Both the position numbers and the translations under genes were made by a program. A stretch of 57,277 nt of DNA from Asterionella formosa (lineage: Eukaryota), in the NCBI GenBank assembly GCA_002256025.1, contig NKIB01013446.1, forward strand, positions 1-57,277, in the 5' to 3' direction. Positions within the stretch are counted from its first letter, which is position 1, and every line of letters begins with the position of its first letter. Below are positions 978-20,688 of this stretch, in pieces. Below the pieces are notes generated by a model. That model was not told the DNA's origin, searched no databases, and saw only the letters and a program-made list of their open reading frames with translations.

Positions 978-2615
978 GTTCCTGCATTTGAATCCCTAGC
1001 TCGAACTCTGGTTAAAAACGTAATATTGATTCATAGTAATCAAACAGACACTTTTCACGAGTAAAACAAATTGTATAACTCTATGGGGAGCTTTCACCAT
1101 TTGGCACACTTTCCGCATGCTTTGATGCAGTCGTTGGTCAAAGTATGGTTACATCTCTGTACAGCCCCGAAGAAAATCGAGAGCATCCGGTTTGGCAAGA
1201 GCTTGGCTAAAATTTAGGGAGTCAGAGTTTGCAGGTGATGCCAAGAGTGTAAAAGGATGTATAAAGTTGATGGTGTTATCCAGATTGTCATAAATGCTCT
1301 CTAAAACTGGAGAGCAATTGCAGCACAGGTCATAGGAAGACTCGCTCAGGAAGGCGAAAAGACCAAGGGTGTGGCGAAGTGGAAGATTTTCAGCAACACG
1401 AGTAGACGGGTACCAGATGCAACCAAAACGGGAATTGGAAAGGGCAGAAAAGGAGGAGTTTCTGGAGGAGGGACAAGATGAACTCCTCCGGGAGGAGCAG
1501 TAAGCGCTCCCTCGGGAGGAGGAGCAGGAGTTCCCTTGTTGGGAAGAGCAGTAGGAGCTGCCATTCACACCTGACCCAACTCAATCCGTTCATTGTTTTC
1601 GTGGATGCTGATTTCGCTGGTTTCTGGAAAGTTGGTGACTTTCAAGATCCCATTTCAGTCCTGTCTTGCACTGACTTTGCCATTTCTTTGCTGGATGTCC
1701 AGTTATACTATGGCTTTCCAAGCTCCAAAATGAAGTGGCTATCTCCAACATGATATTCTTTTACTCGGTCTCCTTGCTGAACTACAGAAGGTCTTCACCT
1801 TCACTACCTCGCCCGCTGTCCTCTCTTGCTTGCTCTATTTTTGAAGACAACGCTGGTGCTCTTGCTTAAGCTCGTGACCACAAATCTCGCCCTTGTACTA
1901 AACATATTGGCCTGAAGTACCATCATTTCTGTTCGCGCATCACTTTGGGTCTAGTCAATCTTTTCCCTATTTCTACATTTGAGCAGGTTGCGGATATCTT
2001 CACTAAACCTTTACCTGTTGTTACCTATATCTATCTCTTGGAGAAATTAATGGGTTGGTAATCTTTTTCACCATTATTTCTCTTCGCTTTTCCTACATTA
2101 CCCTTTTCTGTTCTTTCACAAAGGAGTATGAGATTATCGATTTATGTCTGCCTTGGTGACATCATCTGTCATTGGTATATATTCTATTCTACAATTGCTC
2201 TCGTGATTCTGTCTTTCCATTTCTCTTTATTTTCAAATTCTATTTCAATTCTACTTTGTCAACCTCATTCAGATAGATTAATTGTCTTATAATTTCTAAA
2301 ACTTAGTCAACAAATAAACTGTTTAAACCAGAATATTAGCAGTATATAGTGAGGACATTGGATCTGGTGAGCAAGGAACTTCGGTTTTCCTACTATGCTG
2401 AAACGACTAGAAATTACTGGGCCAAATGGTTTATTTGGCATAGTAGAAAACCCAAGTTCCTTTCTTCAGTTTCTCGCTAGAAACTACTGATGCTAGTACT
2501 TGAATCTTACCTAGCTATGTGATTTTTTCAAACTCTGCCAATGTTGAGCAATCCTCATCCAAAAAGTTGACAAATCAGTATTTTCAAATATTGCCAAAAT
2601 ATTGGAATCAAAATC
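978..2615 (-). mobile_element. Second, inverted copy of the same transposon end, interrupted by a Copia fragment
   Basis: 978-~1155 mirrors ~790-973; after the insert, ~2340-2615 mirrors ~497-785 (e.g. CTCAACATTGGCAGGGTTTGAA vs TTCAAACTCTGCCAATGTTGAG). Confidence 0.75.
1155..2330 (+). mobile_element. Truncated, internally inverted Ty1/Copia fragment: integrase-RT linker and RT start on minus, RNase H on plus, PPT and probable 3' LTR
   Basis: Minus 1155-1570: PPPEGA linker and HPFTLLAS..NSDSLNFSQALAKPDA. Plus 1590-2060: FVDADFAG, FEDNAGAL, TKHIGLKYHHF, EQVADIFTKPL, KLMGW*. AAAGGAGTA then TG at 2129 marks the LTR start; the LTR end (2312 or 2330) is uncertain. Confidence 0.8.
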
Positions 2616-2649
2616 TGATGTGCCAATGGTTAGCTACACTACAGTAGGT

Positions 2650-2880
2650 GCTTTTATGTGACTGGACTCAGACCTCTTGTAATTTGGTATAAACGTGAGG
2701 GTGATGCACCAGTCCCAAGTAGCTACAAGGCAAAAGCTGCTTCAAAGGTACACCAAAACTTGCCAATGTGGGGACCAGATTCCACAAATGCACTTGCTGC
2801 AGAACAGCTTCCTGATCCTCAGCATGCTGCTGAAGATGCAGGTGATGCTGTAGCCAATGGGATCGCAATGATCTGACCAT
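2650..2880 (+). pseudogene. Possible C-terminal remnant of a DDE transposase
   Basis: LRPLVIWYKREGDAPVPS resembles C-termini of diatom pogo/Tc1-like transposases as I recall them; no catalytic motif is visible. Confidence 0.25.
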
Positions 2881-3473
2881 TGGACTTGAAAGTCACAGGA
2901 ATATCATGATGGTGGAAGATGCGGTGCATCATGAATAAATGTTTAATAAAAAGGTACAATGAAGTATAAGTGTGTGAACACATGACCGAATCCATCCTCG
3001 AAAATGTATTTAAATGTATGTACATTTATCAAGAAAAAAGTATATACCGGTACTCCCGTGACCCATTAAAATCACTTTTTGGCTGTTCACATTGCTTGCC
3101 TGCTTATTATTACTCCTACATACGTAGTACCACACAATACCAATGATGCAGATGCTACCGGTACCTGGTAGCTACCGGTACCTGGTACTATAGTTAGTAT
3201 ACTGCTCCCACATCATGCATAGTGTACGGGGTAAATAGATCGATGCATAAATTATTACAAGTTATAGATGATGAAACCACGTGAGAACACGAACCAACGA
3301 GGCGACAATGCCACTTGCAATCCCAATTGAAAGTCTTCCGTCTTGATATTCGAGAACGGAGCACACAGTTACAAGACTTGATAAATTATAACTGGCATTG
3401 CTTTCCTTTGGAAACGAGAGCCTCGTCACAAGCGTATTGCATCGACAAGCATACACGACAAGAGCAATTAAAC

Positions 3474-6400
3474 ATGTACACCAAGAATGGCGAAGAGGAT
3501 GATTCCGTCACAACACTTGGTGGCAATGATTCGAATGCATTGATTTGTAGCGATGAATCATCTCATGCGTCATCCGCCCAATTACTGGGACTTACGCCAT
3601 TGAAGGATCGTATGTCACCGGAATCATTTATTTCCCCCGCCACGCATACACTCAACATTTTGTCGCAGCAAGATACCAATAACTTACGTTACGATTTCAG
3701 TCAAATGGAGAATGATGCAGCAACTCTGTACTCTCAGAGGTCCCCGAATTCTCCTGATGATGTTTCAAAATCAAGAACAGCTTCTATCAACAACAACTAC
3801 CAATCGCCCGTAGAAGTTGGTAATGGTACTCCGAACAAGGAAGGGTCTCGGCGTTGTGGCAGCATCCAGAATGTGACGATCTCACCGAAACCATCAGTTT
3901 TAGCCAATGATTTGGCTGAATTTGAGAAGAAAGCAGCGCTTTCAATGCTTTATACTCACAGAAATTCAGGTGGTCGCAGGGCAGCCGTCGTAGTCCAGGC
4001 CAAGAATGTTTTTCTCCTCGATGCAGCCACACCTGTTTCTGCAGTGGTATCAGGATTGCCCATCAAGTCTTACACAACAGAGAAAGTGTCAAGGAATACA
4101 GAGAAATCCACTACGATGGTCAATGACATGCATTCATACGCTCTCAAACTTCTTGACAAACTCCATGTGCATACCATTGTATTTCCAGAAACGGGAACTT
4201 TGGGTATGTCGATCCAACGCTGGGACTATGGCGGTCTAGAGCTATGCAAAGTCACAAACGTTCATAAAGGGACACAAGCTCATGGGAAGGTAGAGGAAGG
4301 AGATCTAATATGCAACGCATTCTCATGGGACAGTAACAAAAATTGGTTGAGTTTCCTGCAAACGTTGGAACTGATTCGTGCAAGGAAAAGACCGTTGTTC
4401 TTGTGCGTAGCAAGAAGGCAAGATGAAACAACGAATTCCACTGCTGCTAGTTGCTCGCCAGAGACATCCCTGAAGGATAATTCTAGACTCGACGCATTGA
4501 CGCAAGCAGCTGCAGAAGCATATTCTTCCTCCAAGTTCCATACATCGTCCACGATGACTGATGAATCTTACGCCGATGAAGGGGTTACATCAAGCGACAT
4601 CAACGTGCCTGACATGAAGGCAGCTGCAAAATGCTCCTTAAAAACGATTGATAATGATGTTGCAGTATCAACCGCTTCGGCCTTGAAAGTTGTGGTCGGT
4701 TTGACGCCATTAAACTCCTTGTCTGAGACAGTATTTAGTTGCTTCGATTGTAAGAGCAATGGTCATTCACTTCACGAATGTCCGAATTCTAGATGGCAAG
4801 AATCCCTCTTTTGCCAAGCTTGCAACGATGGCACAGTTGACCACCAAAATCTCTGTCAGAATCATGCTCAATATGACAGCGACATTTGCAAGAGCCAATG
4901 GCAAAAAATCAACGATGGTGTACGTTTGGACTGCAAAGTGTGTAAATTTGAATTGAAGCATGGATGGCGCTCTAGTAGCGGGAGGTATAAGCACAAGTGC
5001 CATCGCGCTAAAGGTGCTGATAAGAAATCTCCAACAGAAAAAAAGGCTACATGTAGTTCAAGGCCGACGATGTCTACAATCCCAATGAGGGAGAAAGGGG
5101 AAGCGAAAACAACAATGTCAAGTGAACCAACTAAGGCGGGGAAGAATAGGAACGAGAACAATATTTCTATAATCCAAACGAGGGCGATTAGAGAGGCGAA
5201 GTCGGACGTGGAAAGCCAACCGAAAGAAAAGGAGACAAGGAAAGGGACGATTATTTCTTCTTTAGCCCAAGAGAGAGCGACTAAGGAGGCGAATGAGGCC
5301 ATGAAATGCAAACCGACAGAAAAGAAAGAGACTTGGAAAGGGGAGAAGCTTTCCATAGTCCAGGAGACATTGATTTCGGAGGCGCAGGCGATCATTACAC
5401 GAAGGCTTCCAAGAGGAAAGACTTCTAGGAAAAGGACGAAATTCACTCAAATCCGAACAAGAGCAATTGGATCGACCATGTCCTGCAAACCAATGAAAAC
5501 TAGGAACGAAACCATGTCGATAATACAAACGAGGCCAATTGAGGAGCCGAATACGGCCGTCATTCCTTGCGACTCAATTGAAACGAAGAATATAAATACG
5601 AGAGGGATGTCTATATTCCAAACACAGGCGATTGGTGATGCGAATGCGACCATGAAAGGCGAACGGACTAGGAAGTCGATCGTGGCGGACCCTGGCAAGA
5701 CAACGACCGGAAACGATAACTCAATCAAAACAAGAACAACCATTCTCCAATTGGAAAGTCCAGTGGAATTAGAAGAGCCGAATATTGGTGCTGTGATTGA
5801 TAGGTCTATGAGCCAAACGGCTTCGATCGTAAAGGCAACGAGGGAATCAACAAGGAAATCGGCTACTCAAGATGTAGCTGGACAAATTCTGCGTGTTGAC
5901 GAATCCATCAATGTAAAGGACATCGAAGTGCAATTCTGTTTTGCGTGTAAAAAGAAGTCTAAGTATCACAATGCACTATGCCCACAGCATCCTCACTTTG
6001 AGACATCCGGTGCAGCCGAAAAACTCGAGCTGGTTCGGCGAGGGGTGAATCTTGCTTGCCAAGCTTGTGTCTTTCATTTTAATAATGGCTATCCTGACAA
6101 AAGTAGAGAGCACTCCACTTGCTGTGATTGCAACCTTGGGAAGACAAGCGACAATTCCAAAGATTCTACTTTGACTGTAAAAGAAACCAAAACATGCAGT
6201 ACAGCAGCCAATGATTCTCAAGTAACCAACAAAGGCAAGAAGCGTCCTCTGACAGCCAGTGAACGATTTGGGGATATAGAAAAGTTGCCTGACGGCTCGT
6301 TTCTATCCAGCAGGGGGCGCAAGGTGACGATGTCGCAAAAGGGAAAAGCCGTCAATTTCGAATTTCATGATCACTGCAGCCAAGATAGCGAGAGTTCGGC

Positions 6401-8226
6401 TTACAAACCCGGGAAAGAGGACAGCCAACGTATCAGCAGAAATAAAATACCGGCAGACAACGACGAAGTCGCAATTCCAGCGTTTCCAGTAAGCAGCATC
6501 ATAATCAAGCCAAGGTGGAAGAAATCTACGAATCCTTGGGGAATGTCGGAGCACCGAGAGGGCGACGTCGTCCTTGCCCTTCCTATTGATGGATTCACTT
6601 CCCACGAAGTTGCGTTTTCTGGAAAGCGGTTTGTCGAGAAGCCGTTTACTCCAGACTCCCCATACAAAGATACTCATGTCTCGCCAGAACAGGGCGTGCA
6701 ATTGCTTCAGCTTACTCGTGATCCCCTTGGTTTGACGCCATGGGGCTTCACATTTGCTTCGCATGTGTTCGGAGGCGCTTGCCTGGTAACAAATGTCGAT
6801 TCACTGTCGCCGGCCTCAACAGCAATTATACATGGTAGTACCACAAATTCTGCGTTGCACGTTCACGACATGGTATTATCTGTCAATGGAAGAAATATTG
6901 GAGGCATGACTGAGTTGGGTCTCGAAGTTGAGTTAGAAATCAGTGGCCCGATCGTCCAAGTAGCAGTTTCAAGATATAGATTTGCCACCAGCTACCGACA
7001 AGATGCCGAAGAAAAGGAAGAAGCTGAATTACAAGTGCTGGAAGAGATGCTCGGAGACAAAACAGAACTGGGGTGGCATGAAGTAGCTCTGACAGACTTC
7101 CCTCACGATGATTGTGTGCCCAAGTTGCTGTTGTCACCAAAGAAAATGATTGAAACTCAGGCTTGTGCAAGCTTAGAAACCAGAACCGAGCACATTGTTC
7201 CAAAAGGAGATTGTAACACCGATACTGATCGATCAACTAGTTTCATGATTGGAGCGGATAATATTACGAACAAACAGCCTAGATGGATCGAACGTGATTC
7301 GAAGTACAGATGTGCAAAGCACCCCTCACCTCACAAGGACCGACTAACGACTAGAGTCGCGACAATGACATGTGTTCGTGGAACTGTCGTTCCGGGTGAG
7401 AACGGAATAATTTATTCTCTCTATGGCGCTCCACACAATGATCATGGTAGCGAAACGGATTGTTCAGAGACTCTTGTTCGAAATGAGGAGCATCGTGAAG
7501 CTATAATTGATGTCGAATGCGAAAGCGTTAATGAATACGACGACGACGACAATCCTTGGTCTGGCTGCGTCTGCGGGGAAATTCACGAGCCACCGATCCC
7601 AGTTTTCTGGATTCAATGTGATCAGTGCGATGCCTGGTTCAATGTCTGGGAGAGATGCACCGGGTTGTCCGAGGAAAACGCCTCCCTACTTTCTGAGTTC
7701 AAATGCTGGAGCTGTCATCCTCCTGACATGCAATCTGTCGATGAGGGGAGTGGATATTCTTTGGCAGATACCAAAAATCGCGTGACAGAGGAAGGCGATA
7801 TCGAGAATGGCAGTGAAATGAAAACTGGTGACAACCGTGTCGTTCAAGGAACGCCACACGATGACAAACACTCTCATTGTCCATCACGTGGTTCTAGTCG
7901 GAATGGATTTCAAGGAGTTTGCATCGACGATCCAAAGTGTGATCCGCCAACTTTACTTTCATCATCCGAGCAACCGAAAAGGAAAAGAAATACAAGGATC
8001 GAAGTTGGAACTTTGGTGCAAGTAACAGAACGGAGGTCGCCTGGAATTAATGAATTAGGTGGTGTTGGACGTATCACGGATTCTCACGTGGAAGGTGGAC
8101 ATACATTGTATGACAATAAAATACATGATAGGGAATCACCGAGAATACGGAATTGATTCTGAATGGGTCAAGCTCCATGTCGGGTTTGAGAAGTCCCGTC
8201 GAAGTCTCACCCAAACCTCCCATTGA
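3474..8226 (+). CDS. Large multidomain protein: two PDZ-like domains, duplicated Cys/His Zn-binding module, PHD finger, C-terminal Tudor-like domain; one frameshift at about 8115
   Basis: ORF 3315-8156 with first ATG at 3474. PDZ-like: FPETGTLGMSI..VEEGDLI and TPWGFTF..LHVHDMVLSVNGR. PHD: GCVCG..WIQCDQCDAWFN..C..FKCWSC. Removing one A at 8115 continues the protein as YDIKYMIGNHREYGIDSEWV to TGA at 8224-8226. Confidence 0.85.
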
Positions 8227-8571
8227 GGCCGTTGCTAACTGTTGACCCAAACGAAAACCCAAAAACTAATTTTTGGATTGGTTTTGGTCAACTGACGCAA
8301 AAATGATGCTATCGGTTTTTGGGAAATCCTAAATGCTGTCAACCACCCATCTACTGTGACGTAGGATGACAAAACCATTATAAAAAAAGTAAAATATCTC
8401 TATTAGACTACTACTTTTATAAATGAAATATTAGAATTCCTATTTGGGAATTAGTTAGTTTTTCCCGCAATTTGAGCTGTCTTGTCATCAAACTACACAC
8501 CATTTTGTATATATAATATAGAGTCGTTAACATATACTCCAAGTACATATTACCAGGTACACAACAACAAC

Positions 8572-10018
8572 ATGAACATAACAACATCTGTCGATCACCA
8601 CTCAGAATCCTCGATCATGGCGCCAGCACCCCTTCCAGCCAAGATAGCTCTTTCTCCCTCTGCATGGCAAAAGGAGTTGCAACAAACTGCTGCTGTTGCT
8701 GTTCTGGACAAGGTATCAGGAGGGCCAACAATGACGATCAAAAATCTTCAGAATAAAATATATCTACTTTATCATGGCGATCCATCCATGAAAGGAAGCA
8801 TTGGATATTTAGAGCATCTGCTGACGAGGGGAACGGGTCAATTCGAAAACCTTTGGAGTAGTGGAGAGGAGCTGAATACCAACCTCCCAGGAAATGCAGA
8901 TCGCGTTTCTGCCTTTGATTTGGTCTTAAAAGATTGCTGTTACCTTGATTATCAAAACAGATATGTTGTTGGCTCCCAATTCACTACAAGCAAGATCTCT
9001 TTCAGGCACTTGAATGAAAAATATGTCCACTTTAATTACTGGTCGAACTCTTTTGAAGATGGCTCAGCATGCCCTGCTGAACTAGAAGAAGGCATTAGCA
9101 TTTGGTTCGCAATTTTTGCTCTCTGACGGGACTTAGCTCGCCTTCTGGGAACAATGTTGAAGACTATGAAAACCATGTATTAAGCCATATGTTTCGACAT
9201 CTGAAGGGTCGAACCAGCTACAGCGACCCAGCTAATGATGATGAGGAGGAAATCATGGTTGCTGCTGTGGCATTGAATGATGATGTTGGGATGCCTATGG
9301 ATTATTATATTCATGGCTGGATTGGATTCAAATTGTTTGGACCATTTGCTAGAGATGAGTTCAAGTCTATTCTCTTGCTAACAAAGGATTGTGTCTTGAT
9401 AATGGCAAGAAAGAATCAGCAGGCTGTGCATCAGCTAGAAAATTGGTTGCAGAGGAACGAAGTTTCAGTCGTTCTTCTTATATGTCAATTGATTGCTCCA
9501 TTGGAAGCAGAGGCCAGCTGAAAGTCGAGGACACATCAGTAGCTAGAAGCAGCAAAACTGGCTTTATCAGAAGATTTGATTAACAATTCAATTGGGGGAA
9601 ATGCATTGTCTGGTCTGAGTCAATCTGCTGCATGCACTCATGATTGGATGAAAGGTCTTCTGCAACAACAGGCTAGATACCCATTGGAACATATAATGTT
9701 TGCAAAAGCAAATCCAAACCAAGCTTGATAGTATGTTAGATGGAAAACTGGAATCTATTACAAATCAGATTGACAGTCTCCTGTCTTCTCAGAGAACCAG
9801 AAAACGTGAAAACATTGTTATGAGCATTACTCAAAGAAGAGTAGATTCATGTCATCATCAAGTCCATTGTCAGATGATACTCCCGGCTCAAGCCCCTTCT
9901 CACCTGTGAATGACTTGGGTATATTAAGTATGACTTCTAAAAATCAGCAGCTAGGTGACATTATCTCTCCTGTTGCAAGGCAAGATCCAAGTGGCAATTT
10001 GGATGACTTCGTCTATGA
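8572..10018 (+). pseudogene. Frameshifted ORF, probably the Harbinger accessory (DNA-binding) gene
   Basis: Consecutive ORF pieces 8482-9126, 9102-9521, 9389-9583, 9700-9909, convergent on the transposase. No Myb/SANT motif recognised. Confidence 0.45.
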
Positions 10019-15332: not shown

Positions 15333-16352
15333 TTAGTTATGCTTGTCCATGACCCCGCTATTTCCGCGTATATCACTCAGTCTTCCCTGTCGGACGGGAG
15401 GTGCACTGACTTCGATTCTACCACGTCCACTGGCGTACCCTCCCTGACGGTCAGTAGGATCTAATACATGAACCATAGAACCCGCGGCTTTCTCTTGTTT
15501 CCTCTTTTTACGATTCTCCTCTAGTTCCTTGCGCAACCAATGGTCGGCAATTGCCAACATTTTTGCAGGATGGTTCGTGGCCTTGAGATCTTGGTAGATT
15601 TCGAGATCTTGAAGCTTCCCCTGCCATCCACATTCACCTTTGTCAGTCAAATAATGCAAGTGAGTAGCCCAGTCGTCAAGTCCATCAAAAATATGAGTAG
15701 CATAAATGATTGTTGCATGGCGCTCCTCACTTTCGCGGACCAGCCATTGCAACAAATCTTGTCGAACGCAGACATCAAGACTTGTGGTAATCTCATCCAA
15801 GAACAGCACCTTGAACGGACGAATGAGCCCCAGCAACAGCTGCACCCGACGACGTTGGCCATCACTCAATTGATGCATTCTCCAGTCGAGGTCAATGCCT
15901 AGCATATCAACGAGTTCATCTCTGCGCTCAGGATAGCTCGCTTGGAGACGCTCCATCATGCCGTGAACAGGAATGTCGGCCATTAATGGGACACCCGCTC
16001 CGGCAAATGCCACGGTTCTCATACCCCAATCGCAATCTAGATATGCTCTATGAAAGTTGAGTTTTGTTTCACGAAAGGCGTTCATACCCAACACACGAAC
16101 ATCCTCGTCATGCTTGGTCAAGTGACGGCCAGCCAAGATTCTCATCAGCGTGGACTTCCCACTTCCATTCGCACCGATCAATAGGCAGCGCGATCCAGTT
16201 CCCAAATTAAGGTTGAGGTCGTTTAGAATGGCACAGGGGGCGTTTGTATCGTAGGAGAAGGTGAGGTTCGTAACCTCAATAGCATTAGCACCATAGTCCT
16301 TGACAGGTGGAAGGGGCTTCGGTTTGTAGTCTGCGGGTATGAGGGCTGGCAT
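15333..16352 (-). CDS. Soluble ABC ATPase, yeast CAF16 / plant ABCI19-21-like
   Basis: Walker A GANGSGKS, signature-like WRMHQLSDGQRRRVQL, Walker B VLFLDEITTSLD, H-loop YATHIFDGL; no TM domain; first ATG at 16352. Confidence 0.92.
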   Translation of the reverse strand: MPALIPADYKPKPLPPVKDYGANAIEVTNLTFSYDTNAPCAILNDLNLNLGTGSRCLLIGANGSGKSTLMRILAGRHLTKHDEDVRVLGMNAFRETKLNFHRAYLDCDWGMRTVAFAGAGVPLMADIPVHGMMERLQASYPERRDELVDMLGIDLDWRMHQLSDGQRRRVQLLLGLIRPFKVLFLDEITTSLDVCVRQDLLQWLVRESEERHATIIYATHIFDGLDDWATHLHYLTDKGECGWQGKLQDLEIYQDLKATNHPAKMLAIADHWLRKELEENRKKRKQEKAAGSMVHVLDPTDRQGGYASGRGRIEVSAPPVRQGRLSDIRGNSGVMDKHN

Positions 16353-16722
16353 TGTTAATATAGAGCTATATTTTGGATTGTGAGCAAAATGGAAGGAGAG
16401 TGACAAACTTTGAAACCATTGTGCAGTTCAGTCAGTGTATGTAATATAATAGTGACCACGATGTTAACTGAAAGTCAGAGGGAACAAATTCGGATCGCAC
16501 GTTCCAGTAGAACATACCTTGACCGTGTACCGGAAGGACTCATGCGTTCATCATGGTGTCTGTATGTACAATTTATGCACGCCGAAATATAATCCCTGTG
16601 AGTCAGGGTGATGACATTCTGGAATCAAGATATCAGGTCCAATCCCACCTCATTCATCAGCGAGTGGTAAGCAACTTCGTAAATGTTGTCAGACATACAT
16701 CGCATGGTGGTAACGTTCTTAG

Positions 16723-19700
16723 TATTAATACCTGCGTCCAGTGCACCGGGCGAGCGCAGTGCAGACCAGACCAGTGTAACCACCAGATTAGGTACATCTA
16801 GGTACACCGGCAATCATGCCCCAATGACAGCAAGAGAATAGTCATAATATTGTAGCTCACCTTTGTTATTGACAAGGTTCCCCTCAACAGAGCTACAATA
16901 TCTGTTCTTCCTCCCTTTGTCTCCCTCGACGTTGTGGCTTCTTCTCTTTGCTCCTCCATAGCAAAGCCACCGCCATGCACACGAGCATTCAATCAAGCGC
17001 CCGATTCCTAATAATCACCGGCTTTCTTGCTGCATCTCCACCACCTTTCAACCACTGCATCCTTCATCCAAATGGCGGCTCCCTTGGCTTCATCAGTCTT
17101 CTCTTTCCCTCATACGCTTTTAATGCCGATTGTTGGTAAACCCACAGTCCTCACCGTCACCCAGGCAGTTAGCTAAGGAAAGAGATATTTGCCAATACCC
17201 AGCACTCAGTCCACTGCACCAGTGGTGGTGGTGCAAATGGTTTCCTTGGGATTGTCATGGCTCATGCGACATACATCTTACATGCCGGTGAAGCTTTTGT
17301 TCCCCCCACCCATCCTGGCAACCAGCCCAATCATCTTCCAGCTGCTACTCAATCCCAAATCACTGCAGCAAATTGCCAGTATGATAATCTCCTTGAATCT
17401 TTTCGTCACTACACTCAAGTTTGTGAGGCACTTCGCCAACAAATTCTTCTTGGCATTGATACTACATACTATCATTTCCTTGAGGATGAAACATTTGCTA
17501 TGCCAATGTCACTGTTCTTGCCCTCCTTACTTATTTGGAGACAAGCAACATATGCTACTTTGAGTGCCAACAATTTAGAATTGAATTGTATGCGCCTCAC
17601 AGACATATGGAATCTCAACGAACCCCTAGAAAACTTATGGATCTGTATTAAACATCTCCGTGCTGTTGCAATTGCTGGCGGCGAACCTTTATCAGACAGC
17701 ACTGTCATGCAATTGACATGATCTGCTTTAGAACAGGCAGGGGTGTACACTCACAGCATCTGCACCTGGTGCGATTGTCCTGAACATGATTGTATTTGGG
17801 CGAATTTTGGTCCGCATTTCACTCATTGCGAAAAAGAACATCTCCATTCCTTAACTGCTAATACAGCAGGCTATCATGGTGCGCGTGCTGTTCTTCATCA
17901 TTTGAGTCCTGCTCCACCACTCGCCATTGCTTCATCTTCTCTCACTGGTTTGGCTGCTGCTGCTTGAGGAGTTACTAACATATATTCTTGCAACAACATT
18001 CCCCTGGGCTACTTTTGGAGGCATGGTCTGACAAAAAATCATGAACACACCAGCACCACGTGTGCAAACCCTGTCTCTGGCCATCAAACAACTGCCACAC
18101 TTGACAAACACATGAGCGGCAGTGGTCGCATGTTTAGTGATGGCACTCGACGCAACCGCCCTTCCTCTGCTAGTCTCAATACGGCTATCAACCCCATTCA
18201 ACCTGCCTGACCAGGAGGGGAGCAAGTCATGCTATTGGATAATACTAGTAAACCTAGTTTATCTGCTATGCCCGCTTGTCCCCCCATCATGTTAATTGCA
18301 GATTCTGGTAGTTCCGGCGACTACGCCACCTTGGACCTACCTGTGGTTAACCAGCGCCATACCTCCTGCCCTGTCACAATTCAACTTCCCAACGGAGAGC
18401 AAATATTGTCCACACATGAGGCTGAACTTGATCTTCCTATGCTTCTTCCTGCTGCACCACATGTCCATCTTGTTCCTGGATTATAAAACTGCTCATTATT
18501 ATCCATTGGTCAACTTTGTGACTCGCTGATCAGTGCATTCTCCAAGGCCACCGCTCTGCATCCACCAAATTATGGCATGTTTCCTCACCACCCCTGCACC
18601 CACTGTTCCTGTCCCAATCAACTTTACGGCCGCCGCCATCAGTCCCACGCCCAAAGCTGCCGACCTTGTTGCTTTTGCGCATGCCACACTGTTTTCCCCA
18701 GCCTTATCGACATTGGAAAAGGCCCTTGTCAATGGGTACCTCATAAATTTCCCTCGCTTAACTTTAATAACCCTGCGAAAAACACCCCCCCCCCCACATT
18801 CCATTGCCACCATTAAAGGCCGCCACCTTGATTAGACCAGACAAAACCAGCGATCCACTCAACTCTCACCAATAATCCCTGATCCTGCCCCCACTCTAAC
18901 GTGTCCAATTGATACAGATGCGCATCCCGCCGGCAATGAGATGCCCACGCACATGTGTTATGCTGCAGTTGTAGCCCCTACTGGCCAAATCTACACAGAT
19001 CAAACTGGAAAACTCGTCATACCGTCCAGCACTGGTAATAATTATGTCATGGTGTTGTATGATTTTGATAGCAACTTCATTTTCACGCACCCATTCCGCA
19101 ATCGCACTGCCCCTTGCATCCTTTAGGCTTACAAACACCTCCATCAACGCTTATGATGCAAAGCTGGTGGTCTTCGCCCACGACTTCAACGCTTAGACAA
19201 TTGTAACCAACAACAGCACTGCTAGTGGTATTGCAAATGACACTGTTGGCCAAAAACGCTCCAAAGCCATGGATATGATTTTCTATTGGGTGCGTGATTG
19301 GGTCTGTCAGGAAGCTCAATTCCTTGTTTACTGGAAAAAAGGCAGTTTAAATCGCGCGGATTACTTTACCAAAGACCATCCTGCCTCCCATCACAAATCG
19401 ATCCACGCTCAGTATTTACACCATTCTCCCCTGTCCTAAGCTTGTCATCCTAATTAATTTACTTGTTTGGATTGTTCTGATGATGCTACTGTTACCACCT
19501 GCCCTTGTGGCACCGCCACTACTGTCCATTGGTCTCCTGCATTTGGTGGTGAGGGTGTATTAATACCTGCATCCAGTGCACCGCCCGAGTGCAGTGCAGA
19601 CCAGACCAGTGTAACCAGCACCAGATTAGGTACATCTAGGTACACCGGCAATCATGCCCCAATGACAGCAATAGAATAGTCATAATATTGTAGCTCACCT

Positions 19701-19727
19701 TTGTTATTGACAAGGTTCCCCTCAACA
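16723..19727 (+). mobile_element. Internally deleted diatom-type Ty1/Copia (CoDi-like) element; LTRs 16723-16889 and 19558-19727; TSD CTTAG
   Basis: Direct-repeat LTRs; CTTAG at 16718-16722 and 19728-19732; PPT GGTGAGGGTG. Gag GGGANGFLG, protease ADSGSSGDY, HATLFSP, integrase IYTDQTGK, deletion near 19200 removing RT, RNase H end KRSKAMDMIFYWVRD..NRADYFTK. Confidence 0.93.
16890..16901 (+). promoter_or_regulatory. Primer-binding site complementary to the element's own LTR (candidate self-priming PBS)
   Basis: GAGCTACAATAT abuts the LTR-terminal CA and is the exact reverse complement of ATATTGTAGCTC at 16847-16858. Confidence 0.7.
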
Positions 19728-20688
19728 CTTAGTCCCCTTTTTACGTCGAATATTATGCTTGCAGAATTTGGTACTCAGTTACAAAGTGCGACTGGCGCAA
19801 CAATATATTGTGTTCCCAGTAAACCGGAGACAGAGTTACTCTGAGGACTCAAAGGTAATAGTTCGCACTGTTCTGACCTAGAGTACCCTTACACATGCTG
19901 CCGCAGCGAGCTTGTCTGTGGTAAAGGTAGAATAATATCCAGTTGTCCAGAAGTGGAGCTGGTAGTTGGCACGTGTTGCTGGAGAGGAGCTCATGGGAAG
20001 AAACCCTGTCCACATGTAATTTCTTGTAAAATGACGATTCCAACAATCAAACTTTATTGATTAAAGATCATCATTAGTTCTGGTCTGAAATGGTTGCCAG
20101 TAAAATTAGATAACAAATGCGCGATATTTCGTTCCTTTGAGCATATTATTAATATCAATTTATCCTACACTTAAAATATCTTTTGATTTTGTAATTGCTT
20201 GTTCATATGAATGACACCATAGATCATAGGACTTTGATTATGTGCATACTAGGATATAAGAATCAAACTTTATTGATTACAGATCATAATTTCTGGTAAG
20301 AGAGCGACATTGCATGATAGCCAGTAGTAATATAGATAATCGATGTACAATATACAGTTCCATAGAGCATGAATGTGTATTCTGGTATGTTAATCTCTAT
20401 AAAAACATAGGTGTCTATTAGAAACACAGGTATTTCCCTTACGTAAACAGTGTTAACTCTATAATAACTACTACTAGTTAGGGTGCATTTCCATTATAAT
20501 GACACCTGCATATTGAATATGGAAATGATCACCACCAGGCTACCAAAATTATACATCCTGTAAGATCAGTGTCACATGAGAACACAGATGAAAGGGAGGA
20601 GTCATGTATGCACCTGCTGTATATGCAATATGGAAAAAATCGAAATATACTTGTATACATAGTAAGTATGATCAGTATCTCAATTTAA

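Follow-up and report, generated by a model that had tools for sequence, protein, structure and literature searches.

The analysed window, a stretch of 57,277 nt from Asterionella formosa (contig NKIB01013446.1 of assembly GCA_002256025.1), contains one long terminal repeat (LTR) element at approximately 16721–19727. The two LTRs (16722–16889 and 19557–19727) share 95.3% identity across 171 columns and are the only LTR copies found in the window. The element is a degenerate deletion derivative, lacking reverse transcriptase (RT), of a divergent Copia-like LTR retrotransposon. A segment inside its LTR is complementary to the nucleotides that directly follow the 5' LTR, where a primer-binding site would be expected. 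Based on a comparison with related elements, we consider it likely that the lineage of this element uses its own RNA to prime minus-strand synthesis, in the manner of Tf1. The features that bear on this proposal are the following, where R and U5 denote the repeat and the unique 5' region of the LTR.

16721–16889, plus strand: 5' LTR (169 nt), defined by direct repeats and 95.3% identity to the 3' LTR, with its start set by the conserved GAGGG/TGT motif
16842–16846, plus strand: initiator-like motif TCATA (TCAYW type), with the predicted transcript start at or adjoining 16845
16847–16858, plus strand: proposed self-primer arm ATATTGTAGCTC, based on the 12/12 complement, covariation and the 3'-terminal C
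16859–16889, plus strand: loop, the remainder of the putative R-U5 (31 nt), based on the RNA fold
16890–16901, plus strand: putative primer-binding site GAGCTACAATAT, its first base being the first position after the LTR (LTR+1)
19556–19727, plus strand: 3' LTR (172 nt), defined by direct repeats and identity to the 5' LTR
19685–19696, plus strand: copy of the primer arm in the 3' LTR, with the same 12-nt complement

An inverted-repeat search confirmed that the segments at 16847–16858 and 16890–16901 are 100% complementary over 12 nt and separated by 31 nt. The repeated stretch of the LTR, which has the 3' end ...CTCAACA, ends at 16889, and the pairing thus starts at LTR+1. A first-pass annotation of this DNA had described the 12/12 pairing after the 5' LTR, the identical complement at 19685–19696, the priming register next to the LTR-terminal CA and a small stem in the 31-nt interval, and all four were recovered here. 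Allowing at most one mismatch, the 12-mer occurs at only three places in the window, namely the site and the two LTR arms. Shuffled windows contained a mean of 0.29 matches, and three matches were reached in 1 of 100 shuffles. The arm copy in the 3' LTR has no downstream partner, the flank beginning with CTTAG. The RNA from 16843 to 16905 folds into the helix and a small inner stem (-19.1 kcal/mol, z = -5.3), and the helix persists in a context of 148 nt. In the minimum-free-energy fold, the inner stem is formed by 16859–16867 with 16871–16878, while 16879–16889 are unpaired.

Relatives were collected by scanning metagenome contigs with a pol alignment, which yielded 79 loci with 39–66% identity to the pol protein P0007. 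A collection of viral contigs gave 162 pattern matches, with no encoded relative among them. In a strict test, the best perfect helix was sought in the expected zone of those loci that hold the whole zone (31 of 79), using 500-nt zones inside pol as controls. A perfect helix of at least 10 nt was present in 26 of the 31 loci and one of at least 12 nt in 19, as compared to 4 and 0 of the 70 control zones, respectively. Twelve more loci also have the helix and fall outside the strict count only because their site lies near the contig start. When whole loci were scanned, 45 of 80 sequences displayed at least one perfect inverted repeat with arms of at least 10 nt and a loop of 20–70 nt, whereas shuffled sequences gave 0.096 per sequence and 7.7 in all. 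The relevant helices are found at one place, 1062–1414 nt before the estimated pol start and 122–318 nt (575 nt in locus L078) after the motif that joins the polypurine tract to the LTR start. Since the window holds a single copy, the complement could have been due to chance or to a local duplication artefact of that copy. The chance expectation is far below one, and the architecture recurs with different sequences in the 26 relatives; this explanation is refuted and retains practically no probability.

The helix is maintained by changes on both sides. Among 27 representatives there are 25 distinct arm pairs, and every arm has an exact complement after the LTR. Examples of arms from different families are TTTACGTAGCTC, ATTAAGTAGAAC, ATTGTTTAAATC, TCTTAACACTTC, AGTTACTAACGAC and ATCAGTAATGTC, and examples of sites are GAGCTACGTAAA, GATTTAAACAAT, GAAGTGTTAAGA and GTCGTTAGTAACT. 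In an alignment of 28 representatives, which were chosen by the inverted-repeat search, 94.6% of the cells are paired, as compared to 60.9% after shuffling and 31–38% when the partner is slid. Changes on both sides were seen at 10 of the 12 helix positions in this alignment, with a covariation score of 0.80 against 0.17, and RNAalifold predicts exactly these 12 pairs without a supplied structure. All ten leaders that were tested retain the helix when folded, with z from -4.2 to -5.3. The closest relatives, L010–L012, share approximately 66% identity with the window element overall and 90% across the final ~63 nt of the LTR, and the only difference from the window in their arms is a matched double change, from GCTC/GAGC to GTTC/GAAC. 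The site-side change, G16892 to A, is the majority form in the many-copy DNA run X4 (426,141 of 467,445 in depth), a reading that covers the site side of the pair. The first-pass annotation had suggested that the 10–13 nt after the LTR should covary with an LTR-internal complement if a Tf1-like layout were used by a Copia-like lineage. Such covariation is observed across the related metagenome elements and supports the proposed layout.

The sites do not resemble those of tRNA-primed elements. No TGG was found in the first 8 nt of the site in any of the 27 representatives, and the half-tRNA motif GGTTATG was likewise present in 0 of 27, which agrees with the absence of both motifs reported earlier for the window. 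No 9-mer is common to more than 3 of 25 leaders. The lack of a TGG start, together with the lack of a leader sequence common to the families, argues against a tRNA primer. An Rfam search of 16650–17100 returned no tRNA-like match, on which ground a tRNA-derived LTR was rejected as well, and no tRNA genes were found with ARAGORN over the loci or in the window. A host tRNA fragment could nevertheless act as the primer, such as a 5' piece whose end lies in the D-arm or an organelle tRNA, with the LTR complement as a by-product. Several arms contain TAGCTC, which presumably resembles the start of a D-arm, and host tRNAs were outside the comparison, the window being devoid of tRNA genes. The sites vary widely between families, however, with 25 different sites each matching its own LTR, and neither this nor the paired changes on both sides can be explained by a fixed host RNA. 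We therefore regard priming by a tRNA fragment as very improbable.

The boundaries of the helix are also conserved in a manner that would suit self-priming. In all 27 representatives, the site starts with G, the arm ends with C at its 3' end and the last base of the LTR is A (CA in 16, TA in 11). The base after the arm is A in 24 of the 27. A CAYW motif is present at most 12 nt before the arm in all 27 representatives (TCA in 23, CCA in three and ACA in one). For diatoms, an initiator-like consensus, TCAH(+1)W, has been proposed by Kadono et al. (PMC4686930). The CAYW motif fits this diatom initiator, which suggests a transcript start 1–7 nt (mode 3) before the arm and a predicted R-U5 of 44–76 nt, or 45 nt in the window element.

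A conserved hairpin at this position could alternatively be an RNA structure specific to the 5' end with another role, such as promoter-proximal poly(A) masking, packaging or dimerisation, while a different RNA acts as the primer. The helix is conserved and its function only predicted. It would form at the 5' end alone, because the second arm lies outside the LTR; the arm copy in the 3' LTR is followed by flank and has no partner. A precedent is offered by the fungal Copia element GalEa, which has no tRNA primer-binding site and carries a conserved hairpin site at the position of the primer-binding site, of unknown role (PMC5445492). The GalEa hairpin is a local palindrome that starts at the LTR-final A and has both halves downstream of the LTR; no LTR complement of it was found by the authors, who ruled out the Tf1 model (PMC5445492). 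Thus, GalEa and the present elements are alike in being Copia elements with a conserved hairpin in place of a tRNA site, but differ in the layout of the arms, the partner arm being inside the LTR here. Three observations speak for a role in priming: the second arm is located exactly at the primer-binding position, LTR+1, in 27 of 27 representatives; the leaders contain no other conserved or TGG-type site; and the closing pair is invariably C/G and the last LTR base A, which suits a priming register. Taken together, we find a hairpin with a role other than priming unlikely.

Self-priming, the reading that we prefer, may be envisaged in four steps. Transcription would start from the initiator-like TCAYW motif in the LTR, 1–7 nt before the arm, giving an R-U5 of only 44–76 nt. 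The 5' end would then fold back, so that the arm of 10–13 nt pairs with the 10–13 nt directly after the LTR; the complementarity and its conservation are observed, and folding in vivo is presumed. The RNase H of the element would cut after the invariant 3' C of the arm, by analogy with Tf1. Finally, DNA synthesis from the 3'-OH would proceed over the LTR-final A and on into U5 and R, after which the product would transfer to the 3' R. In Tf1, according to the accounts of priming in PMC7175516 and PMC4600332, the first 11 bases pair with the primer-binding site, and the RNase H cut lies between bases 11 and 12. As far as those accounts describe them, Tf1 and Tf2 of Schizosaccharomyces pombe and Tj1 of S. 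japonicus resemble the present elements in having no tRNA site and a site adjoining the LTR that complements their own upstream RNA, and also in arm length, which is 10–13 nt here. Unlike in Tf1, the predicted primer has 1–7 unpaired nucleotides before the arm, the implied R-U5 is 44–76 nt and an inner stem similar to the U5 inverted-repeat (U5-IR) stem-loop is not conserved. The present system is, moreover, known from sequence alone.

Several points weigh against self-priming. With an R-U5 of about 45 nt, very little R would be available for strand transfer. Tf1 requires a U5-IR stem-loop, to which the inner stem would correspond here; this inner stem is seen in the folds of the window element, L010 and L007 and is not part of the family consensus obtained with RNAalifold. 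Five of the 31 assessable loci (L027, L048, L050, L054 and L057) have no perfect helix of at least 10 nt: the helix of L027 is 9 nt, those of L048 and L050 have 11 of 12 positions paired with one mismatch, and L054 and L057 have none. The level of pairing in the 28-sequence alignment is partly given by construction, the strict-zone test being the unbiased count. A loose contig end in the DNA run carries the arm variant G16855 to A, the partner of which is not linkable. The part TAGCTCA of the arm in the window presumably resembles the start of a tRNA D-arm. Lastly, the transcript start, the cleavage and the strong-stop primer are all predictions drawn from sequence data. In L057, approximately 1.2 kb of G+C-rich, coding-looking sequence (3328–4539) follows the polypurine-tract motif, with no hairpin within 650 nt; this stretch may be an additional reading frame or a very long LTR.

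Contigs assembled from two polyA RNA-seq libraries of one study (X2 and X6) and from one run of unknown kind (X3) cover 16888–19727 with 0–4 differences. They do not cover the flanks at 16431–16692 and 19837–20200, although missing contig cover is not evidence. Over 16693–16823, the contig cover was 4.1 in X6, 0.6 in X3 and 79.7 in X2, as compared to 231–421 in the next bin. The contigs break at 16888 because of the repeat. As only assembled contigs were available, X2, X6 and X3 give neither the transcript start nor proof that this copy is transcribed. Some contigs of X2 and X6 match the window up to 19200 and then differ (GAATG...), continuing the integrase motif of full-length relatives, which indicates that such relatives are present in the same libraries as the deleted copy. 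In the DNA run X4, the 3' part of the LTR and the site were found at a depth ~250x that of the single-copy flanks. The summed contig depth was ~165,000 for 16824–16954 and ~161,000 for 17217–17347, as compared to ~665 for the flanks and 2,000–10,000 for most of the interior. The bin 16824–16954 corresponds to a conserved module of promoter, R-U5 and site that is common to many subfamilies; the peak at 17217–17347 has no explanation.

The coding remnants and the polypurine tract of the window element are as follows.

17173–17721, plus strand: gag-like open frame of 182 codons, closed by a copy-specific TGA
18211–18528, plus strand: protease region (LIADSG ... LLSIGQLCD), with motifs also found in the pol proteins P0007 and P0001
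18836–19126, plus strand: integrase core fragment, 48–57% identical along its whole length to the pol proteins P0001, P0003 and P0007
19197–19439, plus strand: C-terminal RNase H fragment, with a C-terminal motif common to P0001, P0003 and P0007
19548–19555, plus strand: polypurine-tract core GGTGAGGG, directly 5' of the 3' LTR

The integrase fragment matches full-length pol proteins of 1208–1310 aa with 48–57% identity. In the full-length relatives P0001, P0003 and P0007, the domains are arranged in the order protease, integrase, RT, RNase H (PR-IN-RT-RNase H), with the integrase motifs before the RVT_2 match and the RNase H tail last. The order in the window is concordant, the integrase fragment (18836–19126) preceding the RNase H fragment (19197–19439). 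The Copia-type family RVT_2 was the only RT family matched by the relatives, with E = 1.8e-7 to 8.7e-5 and scores of 22.7–31.5 bits, just below the curated cut-off of 31.6 bits. The nearest ESM Atlas clusters also carry RVT_2. No Pfam integrase family was matched by P0001, P0003, P0005 or P0007 at E up to 0.01; by eye, the integrase region of these four proteins displays a clear D, D, E-type core. The lineage is thus poorly covered by current profiles, given the missing integrase match and the RVT_2 scores just below the cut-off. Based on the gene order and on the RT type of the relatives, the window copy itself having no RT, the element is Copia-like, in keeping with the Ty1/Copia (Pseudoviridae) type. 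Membership in the Tf1/sushi group of Ty3/Gypsy elements was rejected, since the pol order PR-RT-RNase H-IN of that group was not found; unlike Tf1/sushi, the present elements combine the order PR-IN-RT-RNase H with an RVT_2-type RT.

The CoDi elements of diatoms (PtC34, Blackbeard and Surcouf) are Ty1/copia-like with LTRs of 153–844 bp and TG/CA ends (Maumus et al. 2009, PMC2806351), and the present elements are similar in being Ty1/copia-like with short LTRs and TG/CA ends. The published PtC34-Rev primer site was found in eight relatives (L020, L022, L026, L033, L043, L062, L063 and L071) with 1–3 mismatches and at one relative position, ~115 nt after the hairpin. The other six of the seven primers of Maumus et al. 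2009, including all those for Blackbeard and Surcouf, had no match in the loci or the window. This suggests that the Copia-like lineage includes relatives of the diatom CoDi element PtC34, the link being indirect via the primer site. Of the earlier assignment to a CoDi-type Ty1/Copia lineage, the Copia part agrees with the gene order and RVT_2, while the CoDi part is supported only indirectly, through the PtC34 primer site in a subgroup of relatives.

The first-pass annotation knew of no description of self-priming for Copia elements, but the literature contains such proposals. According to Neumann et al. (PMC6317226), self-priming was proposed for the plant Copia elements Houba and Osr-1 (cited to Capy 2005) and is predicted for the TAR lineage. 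Self-priming is thus not a first for Copia. The present elements are similar to TAR, Houba and Osr-1 in being Copia-type with proposed or predicted self-priming, but TAR elements are from plants, whereas the present lineage comes from aquatic metagenomes and an alga-like host and is far more divergent (RVT_2 at 22.7–31.5 bits and no integrase family), the two being set apart here by description. The main text of Maumus et al. 2009 (PMC2806351) contains no discussion of primer-binding sites, tRNAs or priming. No description of self-priming in diatom or CoDi elements was found in the literature, the supplementary files of Maumus et al. and Neumann et al. not being covered.

Measured against L012, its closest relative, the window copy has lost approximately 2.66 kb; the deletion junction is near 19200, where the L012 coordinate in the alignment passes directly from 2317 to 4976. 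The single gag-protease frame contains four in-frame stops (three TGA and one TAA), at 17719, 17965, 18208 and 18484. Contigs of related copies have T at 17720, which gives TTA instead of the TGA of the gag frame, and C at 18484, where the protease region of the window is broken by TAA. At least these two stops, at 17720 and 18484, are private mutations of this copy, as the related-copy contigs read sense codons. No Pfam match was obtained for seven fragments of the window at E up to 1. The loss of the RT and the in-frame stops confirm the earlier view of a dead copy, and for the same reasons this copy could at most be copied in trans.

The motif GGTGAGGGTGT, which spans the junction of polypurine tract and LTR (GGTGAGGG followed by TGT), is exact in 10 loci and in the window, and its core GAGGGTGT is present in ~30 loci. 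The pol frame reads through the polypurine tract into the 3' LTR (19545–19565 in the window, and in L001, L004, L006, L007, L010–L012, L016, L027 and L072), and the sequence GGTGAGGGTGT(G/A)TT translates to Gly-Glu-Gly-Val-Leu at the pol C-terminus of P0001, P0003 and P0007. Since the sequences flanking it on either side are unrelated, the motif is conserved as a nucleotide sequence. Most of the relative contigs are circular permutations with one LTR. Exact terminal overlaps of 91–790 nt, several of them of 127 nt, were seen in L004, L006, L007, L010, L012, L025, L028, L042, L047 and L048, and the one-LTR permutations could be due to assembly collapse of both LTRs or to one-LTR circles. L047 alone has a 3' LTR with flank, and places the LTR boundary within 0–4 nt of the site; it is fixed only to this range because the flank happens to start with GTTA, like the site. 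The GTTA after the 3' LTR of L047 (120–130; 5700–5712) equals the first four bases of the site, an identity that could have arisen by chance (1 in 256) or from primer or site sequence left behind at the cDNA end. In L016 (1–8911), two diverged elements with 78% identity are arranged in tandem with one LTR in common, and both have kept an intact hairpin, the second arm being located at 70 and 5551.

The first base of the 5' LTR is A, where the 3' copy and the relatives show the T of TGT. The target-site duplication is ambiguous. CTTAG is present at 16718–16722 and again at 19728–19732, and if these are taken as the duplication, the 5' LTR starts at 16723 without TG. With a 5' LTR start at 16721, in line with the 3' copy, the LTR would instead begin with A in place of T, and its 5-nt flanks would be the mismatched TTCTT and CTTAG. 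On the opposite strand, a reading frame at 15333–16427 (minus strand) encodes an ABC transporter (ABC_tran, E = 4e-15) and ends ~290 nt before the element. The element is placed upstream of the ABC-transporter gene or within one of its introns (flank 16431–16720).

Priming is the one step where LTR elements normally depend on a host tRNA, and this dependence is exploited by silencing that is based on tRNA fragments. With less assurance than for the lineage of the window element, we lean towards the view that self-priming is the universal and probably ancestral mode of the whole deep-branching CoDi-like Copia lineage, in diatoms and other aquatic algae, with the arm coupled to the initiator and an R-U5 of ~45–75 nt. 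If true, a large algal Copia-like lineage that avoids the tRNA primer would widen self-priming beyond Tf1/sushi and the plant TAR elements. It would also provide an annotation rule for diatom genomes: an initiator-like motif, an arm of 11–13 nt ending with C, a loop of 30–70 nt ending with A and a complement starting with G. The 25 natural compensatory variants would offer a ready collection for testing which RNA features self-priming requires. On this view, self-priming would have had at least three origins, in the Tf1/sushi Gypsy elements, in the plant TAR Copia elements and in the present lineage; alternatively, it may be a trait left over from the hairpin-primed ancestor that PMC3601003 suggested for LTR elements.

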